A program made the translations under genes and the position numbers. The notes under the pieces are model-generated. The model was not told the origin of the DNA, made no database searches, and saw only the letters and a list, made by a program, of their open reading frames with translations. From contig MFLV01000011.1 in assembly GCA_001781435.1 (NCBI GenBank), positions 11,268 to 75,267 of the forward strand: DNA of 64,000 nucleotides, in the 5' to 3' direction. Positions 1,319 to 56,321 of the stretch are shown here, piece after piece. Position 1 is the stretch's first letter, and each line of letters starts with the position of its first letter. This DNA is from Candidatus Kaiserbacteria bacterium RIFCSPLOWO2_01_FULL_51_21 (GTDB lineage: Bacteria; Patescibacteriota; Minisyncoccia; Phycocordibacterales; 2-01-FULL-51-21).

Positions 1319-1960
1319 ATGACTACCATTTCACAGCGAGTCGAAGACCCGCTGCTTGCGGTGTTGCTTCGTCTCTTTCCACACCCGACAGTCAAGGATG
1401 CAATGAACTGTCTGAAGATTGAACAGGTCCAAGATGCCGCGGTCAGGGTGGCAGAAAGAGCACGTCAGTTCGCCATCGACGAAGACGAAAGACGCCGAAC
1501 GAAAGGGGGGAAGGACCTCATCAACTATCGCGGATTTTACGTCGGCGCCGTTGGTATCGGGCTGATCTTAAGTCCCTGGCAAGGTCCCTATCCGTATACC
1601 TGGTTTGCTTTTGCCGCGTTTAACACCAAGCCTTCCAAAAAGGCTCGCAAATATTGCGCTGAAAAGCGACTCATGCGTGGCGCACGCAAGAACAGATGCA
1701 CGTGTTTGGGTGGTCTTGCGGTATCAGGAGAGCTACAGCCTGATGGCCGTAGTGGCATCCAGGGCTTGAATCTCGACCCCTGCGGGGCATGCCGGGATGA
1801 TGCGGCAGGTGAATACCGTTCGCTTTTCCGCAACGGCACCCTCCTCCTCACCGCTCAACCGGGTAGTCAGTTTCGGGAAGTGAAAACAATGTCGCAGCTC
1901 ATGGAGGCCCACGGCGAGAAATGGCCTCAACTGAGTAAGCATCGTGCGGGTCGTCCTTAG
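1319..1960 (+). CDS. CDA-fold zinc deaminase (cytidine/deoxycytidylate deaminase-like) with N- and C-terminal extensions
   Basis: Core ...FYVGAVGIGL...KYCAEKRLMRGA...(38 aa)...PCGACRD matches the C-A-E ... P-C-x-x-C zinc-ligand pattern of tetrameric cytidine deaminases. It has an ~70 aa N-terminal and ~45 aa C-terminal extension. Confidence 0.55.
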   Translation: MTTISQRVEDPLLAVLLRLFPHPTVKDAMNCLKIEQVQDAAVRVAERARQFAIDEDERRRTKGGKDLINYRGFYVGAVGIGLILSPWQGPYPYTWFAFAAFNTKPSKKARKYCAEKRLMRGARKNRCTCLGGLAVSGELQPDGRSGIQGLNLDPCGACRDDAAGEYRSLFRNGTLLLTAQPGSQFREVKTMSQLMEAHGEKWPQLSKHRAGRP

Positions 1961-2042
1961 AGAATGGAACTGGAACATCGGATGTTCTAGTTTACGAGGC
2001 ATCGTCTTGGTAATCTCTCAGTAAGAATATTCGCGTCAACCT

Positions 2043-2079
2043 GCGACCTCGAGTTATGCTCGAGGCGCATTTTTTTTAT
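2043..2079 (+). terminator. Rho-independent terminator after the deaminase gene
   Basis: Hairpin CCTCGAG-ttatg-CTCGAGG followed by TTTTTTTT. Confidence 0.5.
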
Positions 2080-2085
2080 AACTCC

Positions 2086-3795
2086 TCACATCCGCTCGGG
2101 GGTTTTGATGCCAAGGAGAAAAAGACCATTCATCATGGTTTGGTGAAATGCTTTGGTGAGTGCAAGTTTGTAGGGAGATTCGGGGGTATCGTCAATTATT
2201 TTTTCTTTTGCGTACCAGCTGTTGAACGTGCCGGCAAGCTCGGTGAGAAACGTGGCGACATAGTGCGGCTCGTATTCCCGCGCCGCGCGCTCAACAATTT
2301 CAGGAAAACGATATAAGAGTCGTTCAATTTCAATAACCTCTTTCGGCACACGCTCGACGTTATCCGCGCTTCCCGCTCTTCCAAGAATGGAGTGAGCACG
2401 CGTTGCCGCGTATTGAAGATAAGGACCACTGTCGCCCTCAAACGAAACAGATTTTTCAAAATCAAAAACGATATCGCTCCCCATTCCTTGCTTGAGAATG
2501 GAATACTTGATGGCGCCAATTGCGATTGCCTCGATAGTCTCCTGCTCCTTCCCCGTCGCCCGTTCGCTCATTTTCTCCTTCACTCTTTTTGAAACTTCAT
2601 CGATAAGCGACTCGGCAGTAACAATGTCACCAGTGCGCGAGGACATTTTCCCAGACGGGAGCCGCAGCATCCCATGCGGAATATGCACGATTTTTTCCGC
2701 GAGTTTCGCGTTAATGCGGCGAAGCGCGGCAAGAACTACCTTGAAGTACTCGACTATCTCATTGCCCGTGATGGAAACAAAAATGTCAGCCGGGTGACGC
2801 TCCTCTTTTAGAAACGCCAGACCGATTTCTTTTGCTTCATAGGTTGGCAGTCCTTCGGAATTCAGAAACACGCGGGTATGGAGTCCTTCTTTTCCCCCAC
2901 GAAAAACTATAGCCCCCTCACTTTGTTCAAAAACTTCTGGGTGTTCTTCGACAATTCTTTTTCCATATACTCCGCTATAAGATTCAAAATAATAATAATC
3001 AAATCCTGTTCCAGTTTTTTCATTAAATGTTCCCAGTTTTTTATAAATTTTTTCAAATTCCCTGAATGATTCGGCTTTCCCTTCAGAATAAAGTTCTAAT
3101 AAATCCTTTTTTTTACTACCTTTTCCATAGAGGCTTTCATATATTTCTTTATTAATTTCTCGAATTTCTTTTTTGGCTTCCTCCTCTTCTTCATATTTAG
3201 CAGCACCCCATCCGTAAGCCTCTCCCCATTTAACATTTGGTTTCTTCATTTTCCCCCAAAGCGCCTTTGCAACATGAAGCCCGACATCACCCTGATAGCT
3301 TGCCCGCTTCACTTCCGCGCCGGAAAACTCAATGAGCCGCGCAATAGATTCACCAATCGCATTACTCATAAGATGCCCAATGTGAAATTCCTTGAATGGG
3401 TTCGGGTCGGTGTATTCCACCATTACCTTCTTTCCAAGAAGCATCTTGTTCTTTCCCCACTCTTCCCCCGATTCGAGAATTTTCCTTACATTACCGGCAA
3501 AAAAATCCCTTGAGAGAAAAAAGTTGATGAAACCGGCCCCCGCCACGTCAACTTTTTCCACCTCCTCCAGCTGCTGTTGTACGATATATCGTACAACTTT
3601 CTCGGCAAGCTCCCGTGGATTGCCGCCCTGCGATTTCGCCAGTACTAGCGCAACATTGCTCGCATAATCTCCGTGCAAGATATCGGCCGGATGCTCCAGA
3701 TAAATGTCGGGGATGGAGAGACCGAGACTTTTGAGCGCCTCCATTATCGACTGCTTGATTTTCTCAACAATCATTGCGGCCATTGTAGCACGCAC
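2086..3795 (-). CDS. argS: Arginyl-tRNA synthetase
   Basis: EFHIGHL (HIGH motif) and an ArgRS-like anticodon-binding C-terminus. It contains a K/E-rich low-complexity insert (KYEEEEEAKKEIREINKEIYESLYGKGSKKKDLLELY). Confidence 0.9.
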   Translation of the reverse strand: MRATMAAMIVEKIKQSIMEALKSLGLSIPDIYLEHPADILHGDYASNVALVLAKSQGGNPRELAEKVVRYIVQQQLEEVEKVDVAGAGFINFFLSRDFFAGNVRKILESGEEWGKNKMLLGKKVMVEYTDPNPFKEFHIGHLMSNAIGESIARLIEFSGAEVKRASYQGDVGLHVAKALWGKMKKPNVKWGEAYGWGAAKYEEEEEAKKEIREINKEIYESLYGKGSKKKDLLELYSEGKAESFREFEKIYKKLGTFNEKTGTGFDYYYFESYSGVYGKRIVEEHPEVFEQSEGAIVFRGGKEGLHTRVFLNSEGLPTYEAKEIGLAFLKEERHPADIFVSITGNEIVEYFKVVLAALRRINAKLAEKIVHIPHGMLRLPSGKMSSRTGDIVTAESLIDEVSKRVKEKMSERATGKEQETIEAIAIGAIKYSILKQGMGSDIVFDFEKSVSFEGDSGPYLQYAATRAHSILGRAGSADNVERVPKEVIEIERLLYRFPEIVERAAREYEPHYVATFLTELAGTFNSWYAKEKIIDDTPESPYKLALTKAFHQTMMNGLFLLGIKTPERM

Positions 3796-3807
3796 CGAGA
3801 GCCCAAT

Positions 3808-4503
3808 TCAGAGCTTGAGGCGACGGCTGACTGCCTGCCGAATCTCCTTGCGGATTGATTCAACTGAACGCATCTTGCCGCGAGGAGCACAGGTGATTTC
3901 AATCCAGTCAGGCCGCGTTGCGGCAAGAGAGCGGTATTGCCGTATCGCCGCCCGCTGGAGAGAAGGGTTGCGTTCGTGGTAATCTTTTCGCCACTTTGTG
4001 TTATTCAAGTAGGGGCGTTTTTTCTTTTCGGCGATAAATTTCTGCGAGACGGCAAGGAGCACATGTAAATAAATTACGAGCGACGGTCGCGGTATGCCGA
4101 GCTCCCGGTACTCAAGCTTTTCAAGCCACTTGATAAAAGCACTCCGCTTCCTCCCGGACGAAAATTTTGCCGACTGGTATGCCGCATTGCTCGGCGTGTA
4201 GCGGTTGCAAACCACGACGCCACGGGAAAGCGCCTTGGTAATTTTAGGAATGGCGCTCACGCGGTCGAGTATATAGGGCAACGATGCAATTTCAGGAAAC
4301 ATTGCCACAAAATCGCCGAATTCTCCCGCGAGCGCTCTCCCAACGAGCGCCCCGGCAAGTGATTCCCGGTAGCGGGGAAAATCGAAGTACGCAACGCGGT
4401 GCTTTTTTGAGAGCTCCTTCACGAGCGCTTTCGCTTGAGTCTTCTTGCCGGCTCCGTCGGAGCCCTCAATGACGATAAGACTTCCTTTCTTCATTGTCGA
4501 CAA
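3808..4503 (-). CDS. tmk: Thymidylate kinase
   Basis: LIVIEGSDGAGKKTQ P-loop and an overall Tmk-like sequence. Confidence 0.9.
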   Translation of the reverse strand: MSTMKKGSLIVIEGSDGAGKKTQAKALVKELSKKHRVAYFDFPRYRESLAGALVGRALAGEFGDFVAMFPEIASLPYILDRVSAIPKITKALSRGVVVCNRYTPSNAAYQSAKFSSGRKRSAFIKWLEKLEYRELGIPRPSLVIYLHVLLAVSQKFIAEKKKRPYLNNTKWRKDYHERNPSLQRAAIRQYRSLAATRPDWIEITCAPRGKMRSVESIRKEIRQAVSRRLKL

Positions 4504-6750: not shown

Positions 6751-7308
6751 CTAGCGTTTTTTCTTTGCCTTCCGCGGCGCGACGTAGCCCCGAACGTTGT
6801 TGCCTTGATACCTTCCAACTTGGCGATAATTTTTCGCCGTCCGGGACGAAATGGTGGAAAAGGTCAACTGGGCAATCTGCATGCCGGGGCGGAGGATGAT
6901 GGGCACACTGTTAAGATTGCAAAGCTCAAGCGTCACCTGCAAGAAATGCCCGGGATTGATGAGCGATGCTGAGTTATGGACCAAAAGCCCGATACGGGCA
7001 AGGGAGCTTTTTCCGTTCATTTCAATGAGATACACATCCGAACCGAAGTGTTCTTTTGAGCAACCGAGGATTGAGACGCCAGGGTGGAGCACAAATGTTC
7101 CGCCATTCTTTACGGTCACTGTGTGAGTTTTTGGGAAAATCTTTTTTACCGGGTCGATGATGCTTGTGGTATGCGGTTCGGTGATGATGAAGGTGTTGCC
7201 AAGTGAAATATCATAACTCACTGGCTGGAGTCGCTTGCGGTCGAAAGGTTTGAGGACAATCGTGCCATGCTTCACTTCTTTCGCAATGTCGATATCAGAG
7301 AGAAACAT
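6751..7308 (-). CDS. dcd: dCTP deaminase (dUTPase superfamily)
   Basis: MFLSDIDIAKEVKHGTIVLKPFD...VHNSASLINPGHFLQVTLEL is typical of Dcd. Confidence 0.85.
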   Translation of the reverse strand: MFLSDIDIAKEVKHGTIVLKPFDRKRLQPVSYDISLGNTFIITEPHTTSIIDPVKKIFPKTHTVTVKNGGTFVLHPGVSILGCSKEHFGSDVYLIEMNGKSSLARIGLLVHNSASLINPGHFLQVTLELCNLNSVPIILRPGMQIAQLTFSTISSRTAKNYRQVGRYQGNNVRGYVAPRKAKKKR

Positions 7309-7339
7309 ACTTGTGGGTTTATTGTCTTTAATATTCTAG

Positions 7340-7369
7340 CGTAATTCGTGATTCGTAATTCGTAATTCG
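7340..7369. repeat. Heptamer-periodic ATTCGTA/TACGAAT intergenic repeat, single arm
   Basis: gTAATTCGtgATTCGTAATTCGTAATTCGg, 7-nt period, between dcd and the CYTH gene. Confidence 0.6.
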
Positions 7370-7373
7370 GTTC

Positions 7374-8078
7374 TTATTGAACCACGAATATTTTGTCCGT
7401 GCCATAATACTCCGGCCAGTGACTATTGTAGTAGGCAAACATTCGCTCAAGCCGCTCCTGTGGAAGCTCCTCAACGCCGAGCTCGCGCATAAACCCCTCG
7501 AGGGATTGCTTCGCCAAAGGAATCTCCGCGGTGTCATCCACGACTTTCTCAAACTCCGCCAGGTAGCCATAACCGGCGTTTTTATCAAGGCAGACCGTCG
7601 CACTCTTATAAGAATACTCCTCCCGCTCCCGCGACCACTTCGCCTGATAGCGAAAGCCGGCGTCAAGGAGAAGCTGGTCAAGCTCTTCAATTCTCATGCC
7701 GGTGACTGGCGCTTCGAACTCAAGCCGCGAAATCGTATTGTGACTTGAACCTTCATCGAGTGACGCTTTCACAACAAAAAGAAGATTGCGGTCGTCAATA
7801 AGGCGGGTGCGAATTGAAAAATCTTTCCCTCGTTCCAACATATCCGAAAGTTTTTTTTGATCCTCCGGCGAGAATGTGTGTGCAAGTGTCGCGCGAAGTT
7901 TTGAGATATCACCACCGACAAAATAGTGGTTAAGCTGTTTGCTTCGAGTGTGGCAGATAGCGGAAGGATCGAGTGTTTGCATGTCTCTACGCAACTTCTC
8001 TGCGCGTTCGCGATTTCCAAGAAGCGATTTGATTTCGATTTCGCAGGATGGCATGTTCCCAATTATACGCTTCCCCAT
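7374..8078 (-). CDS. CYTH-domain protein (class IV adenylate cyclase / triphosphatase-like)
   Basis: N-terminal CEIEIKSLL (ExExK motif) and a C-terminal YLAEFEKVV segment. Confidence 0.5.
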   Translation of the reverse strand: MGKRIIGNMPSCEIEIKSLLGNRERAEKLRRDMQTLDPSAICHTRSKQLNHYFVGGDISKLRATLAHTFSPEDQKKLSDMLERGKDFSIRTRLIDDRNLLFVVKASLDEGSSHNTISRLEFEAPVTGMRIEELDQLLLDAGFRYQAKWSREREEYSYKSATVCLDKNAGYGYLAEFEKVVDDTAEIPLAKQSLEGFMRELGVEELPQERLERMFAYYNSHWPEYYGTDKIFVVQ

Positions 8079-9420: not shown

Positions 9421-9605
9421 TTATTTTACTTCAATCCCTTACAGGGACAAGTCACGAATAGTTTTTTGCTAAAAACTTCCTCGACCCCGCCTCGGATACC
9501 TTTGTATCCTGCGGCTCTGAATCCTCTAAGTATCGGATTCAGCACCTTGTGGATATTTGTGCGAATTGCATTCTCAAAATATCTCACAAGGTCGATTGAT
9601 GTTTC

Positions 9606-13947: not shown

Positions 13948-14022
13948 TGGGTGCCTACTGGGATTCGAACCCAGTCTGGCTCCTCCACAGGGAGCAGTGC
14001 TGACCATTACACCATAGGCACC
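13948..14022 (-). tRNA. tRNA-His (anticodon GUG), with encoded CCA
   Basis: Reverse complement GGTGCCTATGGTGTAATGGTCAGCACTGCTCCCTGTGGAGGAGCCAGACTGGGTTCGAATCCCAGTAGGCACCCA; anticodon loop CUGUGGA. Confidence 0.8.
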
Positions 14023-14068
14023 ATCTGTTCAAACTAACAAAGTCTGGATAGGCCAATCGTGTTAGTTT

Positions 14069-18214: not shown

Positions 18215-18297
18215 TCATCCTATTGAAACACAGCAAAACATAGGAAAGAAACGATTTTGATACACGCTGTAGGATTCGGACGGTCTTCGGTTTTCTG

Positions 18298-18370
18298 TGG
18301 GCGGTGCAAGACTCGAACTTGCGACCTACCCGGTGTAAACGGGTTGCTCTACCAACTGAGCTAACCGCCC
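18298..18370 (-). tRNA. tRNA-Val (anticodon UAC)
   Basis: Reverse complement GGGCGGTTAGCTCAGTTGGTAGAGCAACCCGTTTACACCGGGTAGGTCGCAAGTTCGAGTCTTGCACCGCCCA. Confidence 0.8.
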
Positions 18371-29582: not shown

Positions 29583-29655
29583 CCGCCCATAGCTCAGTTG
29601 GTAGAGCGGCTCCCTTTTAAGGAGAAGGTCGCAGGTTCGAATCCTGCTGGGCGGA
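29583..29655 (+). tRNA. tRNA-Lys (anticodon UUU)
   Basis: CCGCCCATAGCTCAGTTGGTAGAGCGGCTCCCTTTTAAGGAGAAGGTCGCAGGTTCGAATCCTGCTGGGCGGA. Confidence 0.8.
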
Positions 29656-29830
29656 CTTGTGGGACAAGTCCGCCGACCGGACTGAGTGCAGGCGAAGGAG
29701 GTGGGGTCGCGCAAAAATTCAACAGAATTTTATGCGTGACCGGATGCGGGGCGAATCCGCCGACCGCAGTGCGACGGCGCGAGGTGGGGTCGCGGAAATT
29801 TCTAGCAAGAAATTATCCGTGACCGGGCTA
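29650..29830 (+). repeat. tRNA-trailer structured repeats: a perfect hairpin overlapping the tRNA-Lys 3' end, then two tandem ~75-nt units each with a 15-16 bp bulged hairpin
   Basis: GGCGGACTTGTgggACAAGTCCGCC. Unit 1 ...GGTGGGGTCGCGCAAAAATTCaacagGAATTTTATGCGTGACC. Unit 2 ...GGTGGGGTCGCGGAAATTTCtagcaaGAAATTATCCGTGACC. Confidence 0.6.
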
Positions 29831-30547
29831 AATACTAAGCACAAACCGCTCGAGCGCGGTTTCGAGGTCGTGGATACCGCGGCGGGAATCGTGGACCAGG
29901 GCGACCAGTTTTGACGAAAGGCTTTTAACTTCCTCAAGCGAATAATTTTTGAGGGACTGCTTTGCTTTTTGAAACGGAAACGGCTTCATGCTCGCCGCCT
30001 CCGCCGTCGCGGCGGAGGCGGCGAGAAGCATACTTTTTACCTGCCAGAAAAGCATGGAGGAAATGTAAGAGAGGGTGTCTTCTCCTTCGCCTTCGCTTAA
30101 AAGCGCTTTGTGAAAGAGTACCCAAAGCCTTTTGCGGTCGCGACGGCCGAGCGCATCGGTAAGCGCAAAAACATTGAACTTCTGGCCTTCCGCCGCCGGA
30201 AAATGCAAAATTTCTGCATCTGTTTTTTCGGCCCCTTCGAGAATGTCCAGCGAAACTTTCTCCTCAAAAAGAATAAACGTGTTATGCGACTCCTGCATGT
30301 CGGAAAGAAGCCCCGACACCCGCTCGATTGTCCCCTTTTCAGAAAGCACCTGGTCAAGCACTGCGATGCGCGACACTTCAAAGAGCCCCTGGCTCGCGAT
30401 GAGTCCCGCGAGCTCTTCAGGAACGAACGACTCGCTGTCAAGCATGGTTACCACTGTCTCGGGCCGCTTCGCCACCACGGCGTCAACGAGCGCGTGCAGT
30501 TTCCTGCGCGCCTTTATGTGGTCCCCGCCGTGGATAAGAAAAAGCAT
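29828..30547 (-). CDS. holA: DNA polymerase III delta subunit-like
   Basis: The N-terminal MLFLIHGGDHIKARRKL...LFEVSRIAVL pattern is typical of HolA. Confidence 0.5.
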   Translation of the reverse strand: MLFLIHGGDHIKARRKLHALVDAVVAKRPETVVTMLDSESFVPEELAGLIASQGLFEVSRIAVLDQVLSEKGTIERVSGLLSDMQESHNTFILFEEKVSLDILEGAEKTDAEILHFPAAEGQKFNVFALTDALGRRDRKRLWVLFHKALLSEGEGEDTLSYISSMLFWQVKSMLLAASAATAEAASMKPFPFQKAKQSLKNYSLEEVKSLSSKLVALVHDSRRGIHDLETALERFVLSI

Positions 30548-33021: not shown

Positions 33022-33026
33022 GTTGC

Positions 33027-33110
33027 GTACGCGAATTACGAAGTACGAATTAAGAATTACGGAAATGCCTCAAGCTATTCGTACTTCTTACTTCGTAATT
33101 CATACTTCGA
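33027..33110. repeat. TACGAAT/ATTCGTA heptamer repeat, both arms (inverted), between tsaE and polA
   Basis: cgaattacgaagtacgaattaagaattacgg ... tattcgtacttcttacttcgtaattcatacttcg. Confidence 0.65.
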
Positions 33111-33534
33111 TTGTTATTTCCCGCGTTGTCTCGTCAACGAACGCAAAATGTATCTTCACCGCGTCGCGCGGTAGCGATTCTTTGACCCGGTCCGCCCACT
33201 CTACCACAATAAGGTTTTTCGGATCTTTCGCTGTTTTCTCAAAGCGAAGCTGGCGCAGTTCCTTGGGGCTTTCAAGCCGATATGCATCAATGTGTATGAG
33301 CCGCTCAAATTTTTGGTTTTGAAGAGGGTAGATTTTCTGGAGCACAAAGGTCGGACTTGTTACGATACCGGAAACCCCAAGCGCCTTCGCGAGCGCTTTT
33401 ACAAACGCGCTCTTGCCGGCGCCAAGGTCACCGTAGAGCGCCATAACCACGGCAGTGTGTCCGCGGGGTGCAAGCGCTGCGGTCACTTCTTTTGCGAAGA
33501 CTTCAAGTTCGAAAATACTGCGAACAAGTGCCAT
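33100..33534 (-). CDS. tsaE: tRNA threonylcarbamoyladenosine biosynthesis protein TsaE
   Basis: LYGDLGAGKSAFVKALAKALGV...SPTFVLQKIY. Confidence 0.85.
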   Translation of the reverse strand: MALVRSIFELEVFAKEVTAALAPRGHTAVVMALYGDLGAGKSAFVKALAKALGVSGIVTSPTFVLQKIYPLQNQKFERLIHIDAYRLESPKELRQLRFEKTAKDPKNLIVVEWADRVKESLPRDAVKIHFAFVDETTREITIEV

Positions 33535-38621: not shown

Positions 38622-38660
38622 TTCGGCTAATTCATGCTTCCTGATTCATAATTCATTCCT

Positions 38661-39191
38661 ATGGCAGGACACAGTAAATGGGCGCAAATTAAACGAAAAA
38701 AAGAAGCAACTGACGCAAAAAAGAGCCAGATATTTTCTAAATTTGCAAAATTAATCGCCTCTGAATCAAAGAAAGCAAAGGGGGACCGTTCGGCTCCGGG
38801 GCTCCGTCTCGCAATTATGCGCGCGAAAGTGGTAAATATGCCAAACGACAACATTGACCGCGCCATTGAGAAAGGCAAAGGAGACGGAGGCACCGCAATG
38901 GACGAAGTGCTCTATGAAGCATATGGTCCTGGCGGCGTTGCCGTCCTTATTGTCGGCCTTACCGACAATCGAAATCGCACGGCGCAGGAGATAAAACACC
39001 TGCTTTCAAAAAATAATCTTTCACTTGCGGCACCAGGCGCAGCTTCGTGGGCTTTTACAAAAACTGCCGAGGGATACACGCCGCAAACCACGCTCGATCT
39101 GTCAGACACGGACCTCGCCGCGCTTGAAACAATGGTAACCGCCCTTGAAGAGCATGACGATGTCCAAGAAGTATTCACCAATGCCGCATAA
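38661..39191 (+). CDS. yebC: YebC/PmpR-family transcriptional regulator (short)
   Basis: MAGHSKWAQIKRKKEATDAKK. Confidence 0.85.
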   Translation: MAGHSKWAQIKRKKEATDAKKSQIFSKFAKLIASESKKAKGDRSAPGLRLAIMRAKVVNMPNDNIDRAIEKGKGDGGTAMDEVLYEAYGPGGVAVLIVGLTDNRNRTAQEIKHLLSKNNLSLAAPGAASWAFTKTAEGYTPQTTLDLSDTDLAALETMVTALEEHDDVQEVFTNAA

Positions 39192-49174: not shown

Positions 49175-49224
49175 GGTACGAATAGTTCTATTCGTAATTC
49201 TTAATTCGTGCTTCGCTATTCGCT
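49175..49224. repeat. TACGAAT/ATTCGTA heptamer repeat between convergent jag and the T4SS-like cluster
   Basis: ggtacgaatagttctattcgtaattcttaattcgtgcttcgctattcgc. Confidence 0.6.
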
Positions 49225-50451
49225 TCCAAGCTCAAGGCTCCAGAGGGTGCCGTCGTTTTTATTTTTGAAAAACACGTACCGGTCATCAGGACTTATACTT
49301 GGGTCGACGACATCAATGGTTGTGTTGCTTTGGTCGCTAAGTATCCCGAGGAGCGTTGAGTTTCCTGAATCAAGCTCAATTTTCCAAAGATTGTCAACGA
49401 AGGAAACAGATCCTTGATACCACAAATCAGGATACGTGCCCTCGGGAATTTCTGCCGGGACGGCGCAAAACAGAACCGTGTCCGATAACGTGCTCCACGC
49501 GCACTTTTCGAGAGGGAGGGTGTTAAGGGGCAAGGCAGCTATCTCTTTTGTTTTTGTGTTGAGATTTTTAAGACTTATGCCGCCATATCCGCTCTCCGCA
49601 AACACGACGCGAGAAAGGCTTCGGTTGGCGATTGCTGTAAGTCCCGGAACGTTTCCTAGTACCGAGGTAAGCGTCTTTGAAGTGGTGTTTATGAAATAGA
49701 GAAAGCCCGGTGTCTCCCCCGATGGTTTTGAGGAGAGCATGATCGTACTGGTTGCCGGCCAGCTTACGAGCCATTCTTTTAAAGGTGAAGAAAAAAGAAG
49801 CGTTTTCTTTGCCCCGTTTGGCTGCGATGTTGTGACATCCCCGCCTTCCCCGTTCTCTAAAACATACGCAAGGGTTCCTCCGGGCGAAAGTGTAACGCTT
49901 AGGATATTGCGAGGCAAAAAAGTGCCCGCAAGCTCCCTCTCGGTTGTCCCCGTGGCGATAGCCCCCGAAAAAGTGACGATACTCTCTTCATCAGTATCCA
50001 AATATTGCAATACTGCCCCGCTTCCACCGGGAAGCCACAGCGCGCTTTGAACTTTGGGTATTGTGGTGTTGCTTATCCGCTTTGCTTCTCCAGAAGAGAC
50101 TGAAACACTATACACATGCCCGGTGGCCCTCTCCATATAGAGAACCTGGTATTCCTGGGAATCTTTGAGAGGGAGAAACCCCGCAACGGGTACGGATGTC
50201 AGTTGGCGCAGTTTCTGGACAGAAGAAAAAGAAGTCTCTTCGGTTGTTGAAGAGCCCTGTGTCGAGGAGGTGTCAGAGGAAAAGATGTTTGGCCCTTGGC
50301 CAAAAGGGAAGAAGTCAAAACGGCTTCCGGAGGTTCCTGGCGTGGTGGTTTTGTTCGTTTGCAAATAATAGATGCCAACTATCCCAAGCACAAGGAGGAA
50401 AAAAACAACAGCTATAATAATTATGGTTTGACGTGACATATTAAAAACCAA
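49216..50451 (-). CDS. Membrane-anchored beta-propeller-like protein (hypothetical, T4SS-like cluster)
   Basis: N-terminal TM IIIIAVVFFLLVLGIVGIYY, an S/T-rich linker and repeated beta-strand-rich blocks. Confidence 0.4.
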   Translation of the reverse strand: MVFNMSRQTIIIIAVVFFLLVLGIVGIYYLQTNKTTTPGTSGSRFDFFPFGQGPNIFSSDTSSTQGSSTTEETSFSSVQKLRQLTSVPVAGFLPLKDSQEYQVLYMERATGHVYSVSVSSGEAKRISNTTIPKVQSALWLPGGSGAVLQYLDTDEESIVTFSGAIATGTTERELAGTFLPRNILSVTLSPGGTLAYVLENGEGGDVTTSQPNGAKKTLLFSSPLKEWLVSWPATSTIMLSSKPSGETPGFLYFINTTSKTLTSVLGNVPGLTAIANRSLSRVVFAESGYGGISLKNLNTKTKEIAALPLNTLPLEKCAWSTLSDTVLFCAVPAEIPEGTYPDLWYQGSVSFVDNLWKIELDSGNSTLLGILSDQSNTTIDVVDPSISPDDRYVFFKNKNDGTLWSLELGSE

Positions 50452-53855: not shown

Positions 53856-53960
53856 ATTAGAAGTACGAATAACGAATAACGAATAACGAACAGATGCTTG
53901 GAGCGATTCTTAACTTGGCTTGTTTTTTTTCGTAATTCATACTTCGTAATTCGTACTTCA
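53856..53960. repeat. TACGAAT/ATTCGTA heptamer repeat, both arms (inverted) around a T-run, upstream of virB4
   Basis: gaagtacgaataacgaataacgaataacgaa ... tgtttttttt ... ttcgtaattcatacttcgtaattcgtacttc. Confidence 0.65.
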
Positions 53961-54611
53961 TTGAGCCTCCGGGAGGCTCAAGGGCCGTTCCAGTTCGCCG
54001 GGATTAAAAATTTTGTAATAGAGCTCGATAATTTCTTCCGTCCCAAGAACGACACTGCGAATACCACAACGCGTGAGTCCCTGCTCGACAATTGAGGCGC
54101 GCTGTTCAAGCTGGGTGCGGTGTTCCTCGAATGCGGCACTTTCGTCTGCCGCGGCTGTTTTTGACGGCTTTCCAAAAGGCAAAAGGTTTCCGAGCCCCCC
54201 TTTTTTAACGGAAATGAGCGGCGGCGTATAGGGAACGATAACAAAGAAACTCTTCGACATAATGTTCGCCTCTTCAGTAAAGGCTTTTATAAAGTCGATG
54301 TATTCCCGCACCTGGATTTTCATGAGGTCGCTCCCCTGGGCGCGATGCCGCTCTTCGAGGAGCGCGATATAGGGGCGGATGTCGAGTTCCCGCGACTGGA
54401 TGAAAATTTGAATGGAAAACTCGAGCGAGTTAAGAAAGTTCTGAAACTGCAGAAGTATGGCGGATTGCTCGTCCTGGGATTTAAGCGCGAAGTTTAAAGA
54501 AGAGGTCATCAACATCATCCGCAGTCCCCCGTCTTTGAGCACCACGACGCCGTCTCGCACCTCGCGAATCGGAACGAATTCCTGGGTTGTGTTTGTTTTG
54601 GCAGTAGCCAT
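53958..54611 (-). CDS. Hypothetical protein (T4SS-like cluster)
   Basis: ORF only. Confidence 0.4.
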   Translation of the reverse strand: MATAKTNTTQEFVPIREVRDGVVVLKDGGLRMMLMTSSLNFALKSQDEQSAILLQFQNFLNSLEFSIQIFIQSRELDIRPYIALLEERHRAQGSDLMKIQVREYIDFIKAFTEEANIMSKSFFVIVPYTPPLISVKKGGLGNLLPFGKPSKTAAADESAAFEEHRTQLEQRASIVEQGLTRCGIRSVVLGTEEIIELYYKIFNPGELERPLSLPEAQ

Positions 54612-54612
54612 G

Positions 54613-54644
54613 AAGTACGAATAACGAGTTACGAATTACGAATA
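54613..54644. repeat. TACGAAT heptamer repeat, single arm
   Basis: gaagtacgaataacgagttacgaattacgaat. Confidence 0.6.
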
Positions 54645-55027
54645 GGAAAAAAGGTGCGGGACTTTTTAATTAAACCATTACAGATTTTACTTACTACCGT
54701 TGTTTGATTTTCAATGGCCAGATACTCTGCTTCTAAAAGGTATCCAATATCTTTTGCAATGAGTAATTGATTTTGTACTTCAGTAAGAGAACCGAGCGCC
54801 ACGGCGTAAAATTGGGTTTTCTCTTTATAAGAAGAGCGGCTGAATCCTTCCGCAAGGTTTGAAGTAATAGAAACAACAGCTCGACGTAACTGGCTCGTTA
54901 ATCCAAACTGCTCTTCTTTGGGAAAGTTTTTTGTAATTTTGTAAACCATAATAACGAGACGATGCCCCTCTCGCCATACGCGAAGGTCTTTAAACGATTC
55001 TATTTTTTGCTCCTTCTCGTAATTCAT
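54629..55027 (-). CDS. Four-helix-bundle protein (23S rRNA intervening-sequence protein family)
   Basis: LRVWREGHRLVIMVYKITKNFPKEEQFGLTSQLRRAVVSITSNLAEGFSRSS...LGSLTEVQNQLLIAKDIGYL is typical of this family. Confidence 0.7.
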   Translation of the reverse strand: MNYEKEQKIESFKDLRVWREGHRLVIMVYKITKNFPKEEQFGLTSQLRRAVVSITSNLAEGFSRSSYKEKTQFYAVALGSLTEVQNQLLIAKDIGYLLEAEYLAIENQTTVVSKICNGLIKKSRTFFPIRNS

Positions 55028-55060
55028 TTTCGTAATTCTTAATTCGTTCTTCGTAATTCG
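55028..55060. repeat. ATTCGTA heptamer repeat, single arm
   Basis: tttcgtaattcttaattcgttcttcgtaattcg. Confidence 0.6.
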
Positions 55061-55479
55061 TTTTCCTTCGTTCCCGCGTACATGCTTTCCTGAATATCGA
55101 GGCTCCAGGAAAGGTCTTTCAACTTATTCTGCGAAAGCCGCGGTATCGAAAGGAGGGGGGGAATGTTTTTTTCTTGGCCGGCTTTTTGGGGAAGCGTCTT
55201 TTGTTCATGTTTCCAGAGATATAATTTTTTTGAAAAAGCGTAGTAAAATGCCGCTTCAAGCGCATAGATGAACGGACGATTGTTTATTTTATAAAAGGCA
55301 AGGGCGGCGCCGAAAAGAATAATCGGAGCTCCAAGGAGAAGGGCAAGATAGAGTCCGAGGAAGGTGTAGAGGATTACCACAAAACCGCCTGCGCCGGCGA
55401 GGTAGACAAACTGCCGGAATGTTAACGGTCCGATGATTTTATCTTCAATCTCAATAAATTGTGGTACTTGGAATTGCAT
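55039..55479 (-). CDS. Small two-TM membrane protein (VirB3/PrgI-like candidate)
   Basis: FVYLAGAGGFVVILYTFLGLYLALLLGAPIILFGAALAF. Confidence 0.4.
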   Translation of the reverse strand: MQFQVPQFIEIEDKIIGPLTFRQFVYLAGAGGFVVILYTFLGLYLALLLGAPIILFGAALAFYKINNRPFIYALEAAFYYAFSKKLYLWKHEQKTLPQKAGQEKNIPPLLSIPRLSQNKLKDLSWSLDIQESMYAGTKENELRRTN

Positions 55480-55485
55480 ATTGGT

Positions 55486-55590
55486 CAGAAGTACGAAGTA
55501 CGAGTTACGAAGTACGAGTGAAGAAAGAATCGGATGTTTTTTTGAGGTTTCATTTTTATTCGTAATTCGTACTTCTTAATTCGCTATTCG
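55486..55590. repeat. TACGAAT/ATTCGTA heptamer repeat, both arms (inverted) around a T-run
   Basis: cagaagtacgaagtacgagttacgaagtacgagtgaag ... tgtttttttgaggtttcatttttattcgtaattcgtacttcttaattcgctattcg. Confidence 0.65.
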
Positions 55591-56321
55591 ATAGGTTCTT
55601 TGTACGGGTCCACGGTATATGTTTGGGGTTGCTTTGGCTTCTGCGCGGTCTCCATTGCCTGATTCCCTATTCCTGATTCCTGCTTCACTTGGACATTCTC
55701 TCTCGGTAATCGAAACATTTCCAGTAGCTTCGTTTCGGCAATCGTACCGGTCGGCAAATTCGCCGGCACCTCCGCTTTTTTCTGTTCAATTCGTAATTCT
55801 GGTACCTGCGGTTCTGCTGCGGTGGACAGTTCTTCAATCTCCCGGAGTAATTTTTTTCGCTCGATAGTTAGTTCGGGCGGCACTTCGGGTATTTTTGATA
55901 TTTGAGGAATATCCTTTGTGCGCCCAAGCGCTCCAACGGTTGTCTGCGGCGCGAAGACCTCCGGCGCGTTCGCAAGCTCTTGTTCAGCATCCACTTTTGC
56001 ATCTTCCTCAAACATACGACGCAGGGCCTCCCGAATAGGCAAGAAGATTTCCTCATTAACGCTTCCCGTGATAAGTTGCGCTTGCGCGGGCGGAATGTCG
56101 AGCTCACGAGTGAGAGTCTTTGTGAAATCATTTGGTGATTCAAGCCCGAGCATGACGAAGAGCGTTTCGTTCTCAAGTGCCCCCGCCTGGTCAACGTGGA
56201 GCTGATACTTTTTAGCAATGTTTTGGAGCCGCGGTCGCAGGTCGACCGCATTAATGGCATCTTTTATTTCTTTTGGAACCTGCGCGAGTCGTTCTTTTAT
56301 GAGCTGTTGTGTTTCATCCAT
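55584..56321 (-). CDS. Hypothetical protein (T4SS-like cluster)
   Basis: ORF only; charged, P/E-rich C-terminal half. Confidence 0.4.
   Translation of the reverse strand: MDETQQLIKERLAQVPKEIKDAINAVDLRPRLQNIAKKYQLHVDQAGALENETLFVMLGLESPNDFTKTLTRELDIPPAQAQLITGSVNEEIFLPIREALRRMFEEDAKVDAEQELANAPEVFAPQTTVGALGRTKDIPQISKIPEVPPELTIERKKLLREIEELSTAAEPQVPELRIEQKKAEVPANLPTGTIAETKLLEMFRLPRENVQVKQESGIGNQAMETAQKPKQPQTYTVDPYKEPIE

Follow-up and report, generated by a model that had tools for sequence, protein, structure and literature searches.

What are the hairpin repeats that lie behind a tRNA-Lys(UUU) gene of Candidatus Kaiserbacteria bacterium RIFCSPLOWO2_01_FULL_51_21, and why do they recur beside other tRNA genes? 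We analyzed the 64,000-nucleotide (nt) stretch of contig MFLV01000011.1 that contains this gene (hereafter the window). An earlier note on this DNA had described a ~75-nt hairpin repeat in tRNA trailers and had suggested that it may be a processing or stability element or a small mobile RNA element. All sequences that it listed are present where it placed them; however, the unit itself proved to be a ~90-nt three-way junction on the tRNA-sense strand, equipped with a guide complementary to its target. Its helical parts are P1, whose sequence varies; P2-P3, a short stem with a G.A-rich internal loop and a GACG-loop hairpin; and P4, a hairpin of 16 bp that has an AGCA loop, a single bulged A and, at its base, GGUCGC/GUGACC with one G.U pair, and that abuts P1 without a linker. 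What had appeared as a separate first hairpin is stem P1 of the element, the supposed conserved 5' block is the second arm (P2, internal loop and P3), and the hairpins, for which stems of 15-16 bp had been given, are all exactly 37 nt long. The units belong to a previously undescribed RNA/DNA motif family that occurs in at least 120 species of Patescibacteria (the candidate phyla radiation). Its members are small (~90-170 nt) and non-coding, and may well be a non-autonomous, structure-dependent insertion element at tRNA genes.

A 38-nt search pattern was derived from the hairpin alone (GGGTCGC-N10-ARCA-N6-TA-N3-GTGACC) and run against species-representative genomes (596 Gb), for which we estimated ~9 chance matches by our own arithmetic. 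At least 120 loci matched, nearly all of them in Patescibacteria; the groups among the matches listed were Paceibacterota/Parcubacteria, Nomura-, Kaiser-, Taylor- and Zambryskibacteria, and Saccharibacteria. The counts of context, guides and neighbors given below rest on these listed matches (at least 120 loci; 127 pattern matches). A covariance model (R1), built from an alignment (A1) of 113 distinct copies, yielded 139 matches in 679 kb of fetched loci, and in a second R1 search 47 of 102 matches fell outside the 38-nt pattern. Of the outcomes that the earlier note had named as contrary to its reading (no additional copies, no covariation beyond chance, or a known element), none was obtained. 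On viral contigs, a loose 15-base pattern gave chance matches only, none of which had an element-like fold. When the window was compared with Rfam 15, only tRNAs matched at the gathering score, and nothing was detected over the units between 24800 and 30000 even at E up to 10, so that no known family matched them. A description of the element was found neither in Rfam nor in the searchable literature.

The consensus of the 113 copies reads, from 5' to 3', (P1 5' arm)-GAAAG-CC-GGA-(P3: GCGC GACG GCGC)-GA-GGC-GG, followed by P4 (GGUCGCG..AAAUUUUC AGCA GAAAAUU A U..GUGACC) and the P1 3' arm. In the proposed structure, 97.9% of the cells in P2, 91.2% in P3 and 99.4% in P4 were paired. The number of cells changed on both sides was 658 (shuffled mean, 229), and the covariation score reached 0.474, compared with 0.173 for shuffled alignments (0 of 500 reached the observed value) and no more than 0.13 for slid controls. 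For example, the middle pair of P2 is C-G in 73 copies, A-U in 21, G-C in 10 and U-A in 4, and RNAalifold independently predicted the same P2, P3 and P4. The bulged A and the exchange of A-U for C-G reported from the window were real: pair 65/80 is AU in 61, UA in 44 and CG in 6 of the 113 copies. The claim of selection on structure is thereby supported, for a single strand of RNA or DNA, at the family level. Moreover, the variable pairs of P4 include 64 G.U and only 3 A.C combinations; therefore, only the tRNA-sense strand folds.

Near-invariant unpaired nucleotides include A27, G48, A49, G54, the A-G-C-A loop and the bulged A, the last seen in all 113 copies. However, the search pattern prescribed the loop, the bulge and the six basal pairs of P4, and their invariance in A1 is partly imposed by it. 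Indeed, matches outside the pattern showed other P4 bases (GGCUGC/GUAGCC, GGUCGA.. and GGCCG../..UGGCC). In a swapped-tip variant (e.g., L140:7685-7800), the AU-rich AGCA-loop hairpin sits on the P3 arm and the GA/GACG/GA module at the tip of P4. In addition, closed-hairpin and open copies are circular permutations of one junction, broken exactly between P4 and P1. Two further candidate identities were rejected. Kink-turns need a 3-nt loop, and P2/P3 has just a 1-nt bulge beside the tandem G.A; and mimicry of 23S rRNA, suggested by a similarity to the E. coli 23S sequence, was dropped because the corresponding hairpin of a Patescibacteria 23S rRNA (L136) has just the generic stem/GA-GA/stem design in common with the element.

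The P1 arm just upstream of the core differed at every locus and was complementary to the tRNA next to it. Two classes of copies were distinguished. In the short-spacer class, which includes all tRNA-linked copies of this type (type A) in the window, the arm pairs with the acceptor 3' end and the first trailer nucleotides, and the 5-7 nt after GUGACC repeat the trailer. In the long-spacer class, the arm and the following GAA are complementary to the T-loop and T-stem from nt 54-62 onward (54-65), and a copy of tRNA nt 57 to 73/74 starts directly after GUGACC. Guides of 6-17 nt suit each different tRNA or transfer-messenger RNA (tmRNA). An exact copy of 17-20 nt of the tRNA 3' end was found at ~25 loci (28 nt in L126), and at other loci the target copy was as short as 7-10 nt, still pairing with the guide. 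A longer duplication that extends into the trailer or terminator was clear in L126, L164 and L183, and the similarity was weak elsewhere. In L225 (~1400-1600), a ~25-nt direct repeat, AAGACCCACTGCGGAGGACGGGTG, flanks a copy located upstream of a gene start with no tRNA nearby, showing that target duplication is not limited to tRNA sites.

Six type-A copies were recognized in the window by R1 (units A-E and a decayed unit; Table 1): two at tRNA-Lys, two at tRNA-Arg(GCG), of which one is good and one decayed, one at tRNA-Arg(UCU) and one at rplK. The earlier list, which lacked units D and E and the decayed unit, was therefore too short. The pattern GGGGTCGC-N18-40-CGTGACC occurs three times in the window (0.00 expected), and the looser GGTCGC...GTGACC four times (0.2 expected), with the fourth match on the reverse strand in unit D. 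The window units fold far better than shuffled sequence (z -2.8 to -7.7). P4 is followed by GG.., AAAAAG.. or AAGTAG.. and by no T-run, and an intrinsic terminator was rejected on this ground, in agreement with the earlier note; genuine terminators occur elsewhere in the window, e.g., around 25419-25450.

In unit A, the last 6 nt of tRNA-Lys (GGCGGA) start the 5' arm of P1, in which X1 (tRNA 3' end and trailer, GGCGGACTTGT) is separated by the loop GGG from its complement, the guide X' (ACAAGTCCGCC). The core then runs from X' through P2 (ACC/GGT), a variable P3 arm and GG to P4 (29705-29741), which has the bulged A and an AACA loop. Unit B combines a short P1 hairpin (CGGAT..ATCCG) with P2 ACC/GGT, P3 GTGC-GACG-GCGC and an AGCA-loop P4 (29788-29824). 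The P1 hairpin of unit C, GGCAAAAGC-GAA-GCTTTTGCC (24980-25000), takes in the 3' end of tRNA-Arg(GCG), and its P4 lies at 25031-25067. Unit D, between tRNA-Arg(UCU) (18571-18498) and tRNA-Val(UAC) (18370-18297), consists of the P1 hairpin GGCAAAAGTA-TGGGG-TACTTTTGCC, an additional hairpin ahead of P4, and P4 itself (18392-18428). Unit E follows rplK (L11, 9606-10028); its P1 hairpin (CTGAATCC..GGATTCAG) is closed and its P4 has diverged. A ribosomal protein L1 leader was rejected for this copy because the downstream gene is of the F420_ligase family, not L1.

Two further elements of the window have the outer design of type A in common and different cores. In type B, the guide GCAGGAATCGAA (25309-25320) can pair with the T-loop and T-stem of tRNA-Arg(CCG), and the element, whose core is unlike that of type A, ends in GATTCCTGCCGAGAGGA (25396-25412), an exact 17-nt copy of tRNA nt 57-73. 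In type C, the guide GGTGAGATTCGAA (22705-22717) is followed by a ~110-nt core of another kind and by GATTCTCACCCCCTCCG (22829-22845), which matches the 3' part of tRNA-Ser at 16 of 17 positions.

Table 1. Positions of the elements and of associated tRNA genes in the window.
Feature	Positions	Strand	Evidence and remarks
tRNA-Lys(UUU)	29583-29655	+	ARAGORN; Rfam tRNA, 73.1 bits; without encoded CCA
Stem P1 of unit A	29650-29674	+	11-bp hairpin GGCGGACTTGT-GGG-ACAAGTCCGCC; RNAfold and sequence
Core of unit A	29664-29742	+	R1 match 29671-29742, 50.8 bits, E 1e-13
Unit B, in tandem with unit A	29743-29834	+	R1, 78.8 bits, E 2e-22
tRNA-Arg(GCG)	24912-24983	+	
Unit C, 3' of tRNA-Arg(GCG)	24980-25077	+	R1 match 24982-25077, 64.6 bits; sequence
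Decayed second tandem unit, distal to unit C	25080-25155	+	R1, 20.8 bits, E 3e-4
Unit D, tRNA-Arg(UCU)/tRNA-Val(UAC) spacer	18382-18502	-	R1 match 18382-18477, 45.5 bits; pattern match; sequence
Unit E, after rplK and before F420_ligase-family gene	9440-9535	-	R1, 54.2 bits; sequence; Pfam
Type B element, after tRNA-Arg(CCG) (25188-25259)	25309-25412	+	Repeat family D7; sequence
Type C element, after tRNA-Ser(UGA) and its terminator	22705-22845	+	Sequence

The association with tRNA genes observed in the window holds across the family. A same-strand tRNA was present within 150 nt upstream of 77 of the 127 pattern matches and within 150 nt downstream of 29, and an opposite-strand tRNA was seen for one. 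At least 15 different tRNA identities carry neighboring copies. Some copies scored as having no tRNA adjoin the tRNA-like 3' end of tmRNA (L146, L170 and L190), and others result from the cut-off at the edge of the locus. At additional sites, copies lay antisense next to 5S rRNA, within a further 5S copy that is interrupted (L121 and L129), and inside short 5' pseudo-copies just upstream of intact tRNA-Ile, tRNA-Asn and tRNA-Ser genes. A terminator-like hairpin with a T-run separates the tRNA from the element in 31 of 49 long-spacer loci. At the 28 short-spacer loci, no terminator precedes the element, which is often located 13-29 nt ahead of the next tRNA; hence, these copies must be co-transcribed. 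An all-against-all comparison of the open reading frames (ORFs) within 3.5 kb of 120 listed loci revealed no recurrent protein family, and the largest ORF cluster near the element, found at 10 of these 120 loci, was a housekeeping one.

One copy was located in frame inside a protein gene. In L125, a 444-amino acid (aa) ORF identified as UvrC is continuous through the element, which lengthens the protein by ~31 residues between its CTPC and CRPCFNRQIG motifs. None of the aligned homologs shares this insertion, though some have others at the same spot. In the UvrC homologs P0123, P0124 and P0131, different insertions of 10-50 aa were observed in the loop from CTPC to CxPCFNRQIG (alignment A3, columns ~185-245), and this loop appears to be an in-frame insertion hot spot in Patescibacteria. 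Overlapping structured-RNA candidates near uvrC were mentioned by Fremin and Bhatt (2021, PMC8040213).

Comparison with relatives, in which orthologous loci were fetched through the neighboring holA gene, revealed turnover. The tRNA-Lys(UUU) gene near holA has no unit in L241 (whose holA is 81% identical), L243 and L244. Upstream of tRNA-Arg(CCG), L241 has at least three intact tandem units, compared with one good and one decayed unit in the window; downstream of the same tRNA, it has a long-P4 variant of type A, whereas the window has type B. Arrays of type B and type A elements occur behind a single tRNA, and their distal target copies are decayed. In L147, a copy of the element's 3' half stands on either side of a 3-kb islet (1461-4459). 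Visual inspection of the islet's ORFs suggested a C-terminal piece of a recombinase, a TIR-like protein and a SLATT-like membrane protein; possibly, a defense islet has integrated here at a tRNA-Tyr site. We also observed that in L241 the tRNA-Lys(UUU) gene (6768-6841; 29583-29655 in the window) is inverted relative to holA and has a methyltransferase gene beside it, a local rearrangement that falls exactly at the element-bearing site.

Insertion is favored over a fixed processing signal because of the target-site duplications and guides suited to many targets, because of the distally decaying arrays together with presence/absence and type replacement between relatives, and because of the insertion into a protein gene and the terminators that shield many copies from tRNA transcription. 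The mobile unit would comprise the tRNA 3' segment, a spacer (often with a terminator), the guide and the core. The 3' arm of P1 would serve as the guide, either to T-loop/T-stem nt 54-65 of a tRNA or tmRNA or to the acceptor end and trailer, and the gene would be entered either in the T-loop, where nt 56 and 57 meet, or exactly at its 3' end. The gene would be rebuilt with the element's copy of the 3' segment, and the original segment would be moved to just after GUGACC; repeated insertions and unequal exchange may then have produced the tandem arrays of the window. A trans-acting host enzyme would probably read the folded single strand, with the conserved core as its handle and P1 mimicking the target duplex. 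The ongoing mobility, the unit boundaries and this enzyme are what we infer from such patterns. A more specific scheme, which we consider conceivable but rather unlikely, is that the folded ~90-nt single strand (RNA or DNA) finds its target by pairing with the T-loop/T-stem of a tRNA or tmRNA gene and is inserted where nt 56 and 57 meet, through either a ribozyme-like core of its own or a junction-reading host enzyme, bringing a replacement tRNA 3' end; the element would then be a protein-less, guide-bearing mini-integrative element.

Several observations weigh against an insertion element. No transposase, integrase or reverse transcriptase was associated with the element among the ORFs within 3.5 kb of the 120 listed loci, and the 38-nt pattern had no match in 2.9 million viral contigs, so that no vector is evident. 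There are no terminal inverted repeats, and the duplications have no fixed length (~6 to 28 nt). Only one copy among ~170, that in uvrC, lies within an ORF. The same P4 variant is found behind tRNA-Lys(UUU) in the window, L161 and L195, and some element positions look vertically inherited. Orientation relative to tRNAs is strict (106 same, 1 opposite), and conservation across deeply diverged lineages is very strong, both for the unpaired nucleotides (GAAAG, GGA/GA, GG, AGCA and the bulged A) and for the P4 base sequence, the invariance of which in A1 is partly imposed by the search pattern. Conserved unpaired core nucleotides and strict orientation are marks of a functional RNA, not junk.

These last features are also what a cis-acting RNA module of stable-RNA transcripts would display, that is, a processing, insulating or 3'-end-protecting signal co-transcribed with tRNAs, an explanation that we regard as possible although somewhat improbable. 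For example, the coaxial P1-P4 helix might be an endonuclease site or a block to 3' exonucleases behind tRNA genes that lack CCA, and the tRNA-end duplications might be by-products or serve alternative pairing. The strand-specific fold with its G.U pairs, the conserved junction and loop nucleotides, the use of the last tRNA nucleotides as part of P1, the orientation shared with the tRNAs, and the 28 short-spacer loci, with no terminator before the element and often the next tRNA just behind it, would all agree with such a role. However, the terminator-like hairpin and T-run that intervene in 31 of 49 long-spacer loci, and the copies that lie antisense by 5S rRNA, after rplK and in uvrC, argue against it and, together with the copies upstream of tRNAs, against the simple trailer processing or stability hairpin that the earlier note had offered as one option. 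In addition, the element is absent at the same tRNA in relatives, and an essential role is hard to reconcile with distal units that have decayed and with the replacement of one core type by another at a given site. The other option of that note, a small tRNA-associated mobile element, fits best.

A small self-cleaving or self-ligating ribozyme, similar to an intron, was also considered and appears quite unlikely. The open stem and two hairpins, with a candidate scissile site where P4 meets the 3' strand of P1, have the strand topology of a type I hammerhead, and cuts at GUGACC|X and at C56|R57 of a guide-bound tRNA would allow excision and insertion at the RNA level. In favor of such a ribozyme are the ~25 conserved nucleotides around the junction, the lack of a P4-P1 linker, the presence of sequence X after both candidate sites, the complementarity of the guide and GAA to the T-loop from UUC-R57 onward, and the closed and open forms permuted exactly at the candidate cleavage point. 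On the other hand, allowing E values up to 10 brought up no Rfam ribozyme family; no candidate pseudoknot was apparent; the P4 strand has no substitute in the nucleotides 5' of the tRNA site; and fixation in DNA would need a reverse transcriptase, none of which is linked. The hammerhead is a three-way junction that has CUGANGA and GAA as core strands and H17 unpaired where cleavage occurs; the element, as read from its sequence, contains neither CUGANGA nor GAA-A15.1/U16.1, and its junction strands are GAAAG, GG and none, so that a hammerhead was rejected in spite of the equal topology. Ribozymes similar to that of hepatitis delta virus (HDV), including theta, the minimal HDV-like form, are nested double pseudoknots (P1/P2 crossing, P1.1) with the 3' strand of P2 located after P4 and a catalytic C in J4/2. 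An HDV-like fold (P1/P2 pseudoknot, GACC/GGUC) was attempted by hand and rejected, because the 3' strand it needs after P4 is absent from the family alignment: the flank after GUGACC is a variable target copy, and no conserved strand there pairs upstream. Theta and type I hammerhead ribozymes are likewise small structured RNAs that flank tRNAs, but the element lacks their defining cores and pseudoknots and has no Rfam match.

It is very unlikely that the units are relics of integrase-mediated integration, with the tRNA 3' duplications as attL/attR scars of deleted islands or prophages and the core as leftover island sequence. Direct repeats of the segment from the T-loop to the 3' end of tRNA and tmRNA genes are the classic integrase signature, the L147 islet contains a recombinase fragment and defense-like genes between two element 3' halves, and serine recombinases were found near 4 loci. 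However, a random scar would not have a 70-nt core whose covarying helices are conserved in more than 100 species, most loci by far have no integrase nearby, and the 38-nt pattern matched no viral contig. The resemblance to tRNA/tmRNA-targeting integrative elements and cis-mobilizable elements is nevertheless close: direct repeats of this kind flank the insert (~25 loci; in the window, e.g., 25396-25412), the tRNA gene would be rebuilt from the element's copy, and older copies are distal in tandem build-ups. In contrast to those elements, the units are ~100 nt rather than kilobases long, contain no integrase, and have a conserved folded core and an inverted target copy, the guide, which has no role in double-strand att recombination. 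Finally, a trans-acting small RNA or protein-binding decoy whose genes cluster with tRNA genes, e.g., an acceptor/T-arm mimic for a tRNA-handling protein, is highly improbable, because its copies vary in number and are in part decayed and it leaves the target-specific guide and the flanking duplication unexplained, although P4 stacks on P1 without a linker, as a T-arm does on an acceptor stem, and the GACG and AGCA loop modules swap arms, as expected of independent binding modules.

Some other known systems also resemble the element in part. Integron attC sites and the CTX-phi attP(+) site used by XerCD are strand-specific hairpins with an extrahelical base that are read as structure, the stem recreating a target-like duplex, and the recombinase can be encoded elsewhere. 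The element is likewise a strand-specific hairpin with an extrahelical base (the bulged A; G.U 64 versus A.C 3). It differs from attC in its highly conserved core sequence, and from both in being a three-way junction with no cassettes or phage genomes attached and no link to a recombinase. Miniature inverted-repeat transposable elements (MITEs) and the repetitive extragenic palindromes and bacterial interspersed mosaic elements are, as is our element, small, non-autonomous, structured, multi-copy and intergenic, but the element has strong target and orientation specificity and lacks terminal inverted repeats, a fixed-length target duplication and a partner transposase or RAYT gene. A MITE was rejected on the absence of terminal inverted repeats, the variable duplications (~6 to 28 nt) and the absence of a recurrent neighboring protein. 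Guide arrays of the tandem interspaced guide RNA (TIGR) or CRISPR type were also rejected, as such arrays are long and regular, with short repeat-spacer units beside an effector gene, whereas our units are single or occur in 2-3 tandem copies with no linked protein.

Rickettsia palindromic elements (RPEs) are comparable in that they are short (~100-150 bp), non-coding and hairpin-forming, occur in a reduced-genome lineage without a linked transposase, and reside in intergenic DNA and RNA genes and, now and then, in frame within protein genes. Of the 526 RPEs reported for R. bellii, protein genes contain 53 and the tmRNA gene contains one (PMC1458961). In our family, an in-frame copy was found once (uvrC in L125) and tmRNA-adjacent copies in L146, L170 and L190. 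No sequence relation to RPEs was noticed, although no comparison with RPE models was made. The differences are the lineage, the rarity of ORF insertion (1 of ~170) and dominance of tRNA/tmRNA 3' ends, the fixed orientation, the target-complementary guide and the 17-20-nt duplication of the tRNA end. Group I introns, which interrupt or accompany tRNA genes in the same phylum, are full introns at positions 35/36 of the anticodon loop, for which self-splicing was shown (Nakagawa et al. 2026, PMC13011429); such an intron was rejected for our unit, which, at ~90 nt, is shorter than a group I core (~200 nt or more, with P3-P9), lies beside a tRNA that is intact and has no Rfam match. None of the nearest known systems (RPEs, integrase-type islands and attC/attP) joins a conserved ~90-nt three-way junction to a guide complementary to the target and a rebuilt tRNA 3' end.

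Additional features were observed around tRNA genes and elements. The tRNA-Val(UAC) gene next to unit D is bracketed by an inverted repeat (18275-18395, reverse strand), with CGGTTTTCTGT just 5' and ACAGAAAACCG just 3' of it, which would lengthen the acceptor stem in the precursor. In the 47-nt spacer between tRNA-Leu(GAG) and tRNA-His (14022-14068, reverse strand), a P1-like hairpin without a core (AAAACTAACA...TGTTAGTTT) directly follows the tRNA 3' end, and a similar one follows tRNA-Lys in L244; either may represent an empty site or a remnant. A small module, GUGUACUG-UUCC(Y)GUAAGGAA, is present in several element types and beside the rplK copy (window 25373-25395 and the flank at 9440-9460; L122 ~7590-7618; L129 ~3600-3630), and a related GAAAGUGUACUCAC hairpin lies between P4 and the target copy in L126, L146, L147 and L232. 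Many intergenic spacers of the window contain a 7-nt periodic repeat (TTCGTAA / ATTCGTA; complement ACGAAKT; families D1 and D3-D5), with runs at 7324-7377, 21758-21825, 22542-22570, 33025-33117, 38624-38663, 49177-49230, 53859-53968, 54611-54659, 55015-55068 and 55488-55605. One run is located directly upstream of tRNA-Ser; the runs may form an array in promoter regions or for the binding of a factor. At 23679-24186, a ~121-132-nt repeat (61-88% identity) occurs in four tandem copies within a 491-aa ORF (23405-24880, reverse strand) that encodes a repetitive protein with no Pfam match.

Patescibacteria account for a considerable part of bacterial diversity, and their genomes are tiny, with hardly any DNA to spare; yet the element is located behind many of their tRNA genes. 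It points either to a new way of moving or maintaining DNA at tRNA genes or to a new step in the handling of tRNA transcripts, the latter in organisms that have been described as lacking many standard RNases. For genome annotation, the duplicated tRNA 3' ends and the 5' pseudo-copies can mislead the prediction of tRNAs, tmRNAs and island boundaries.

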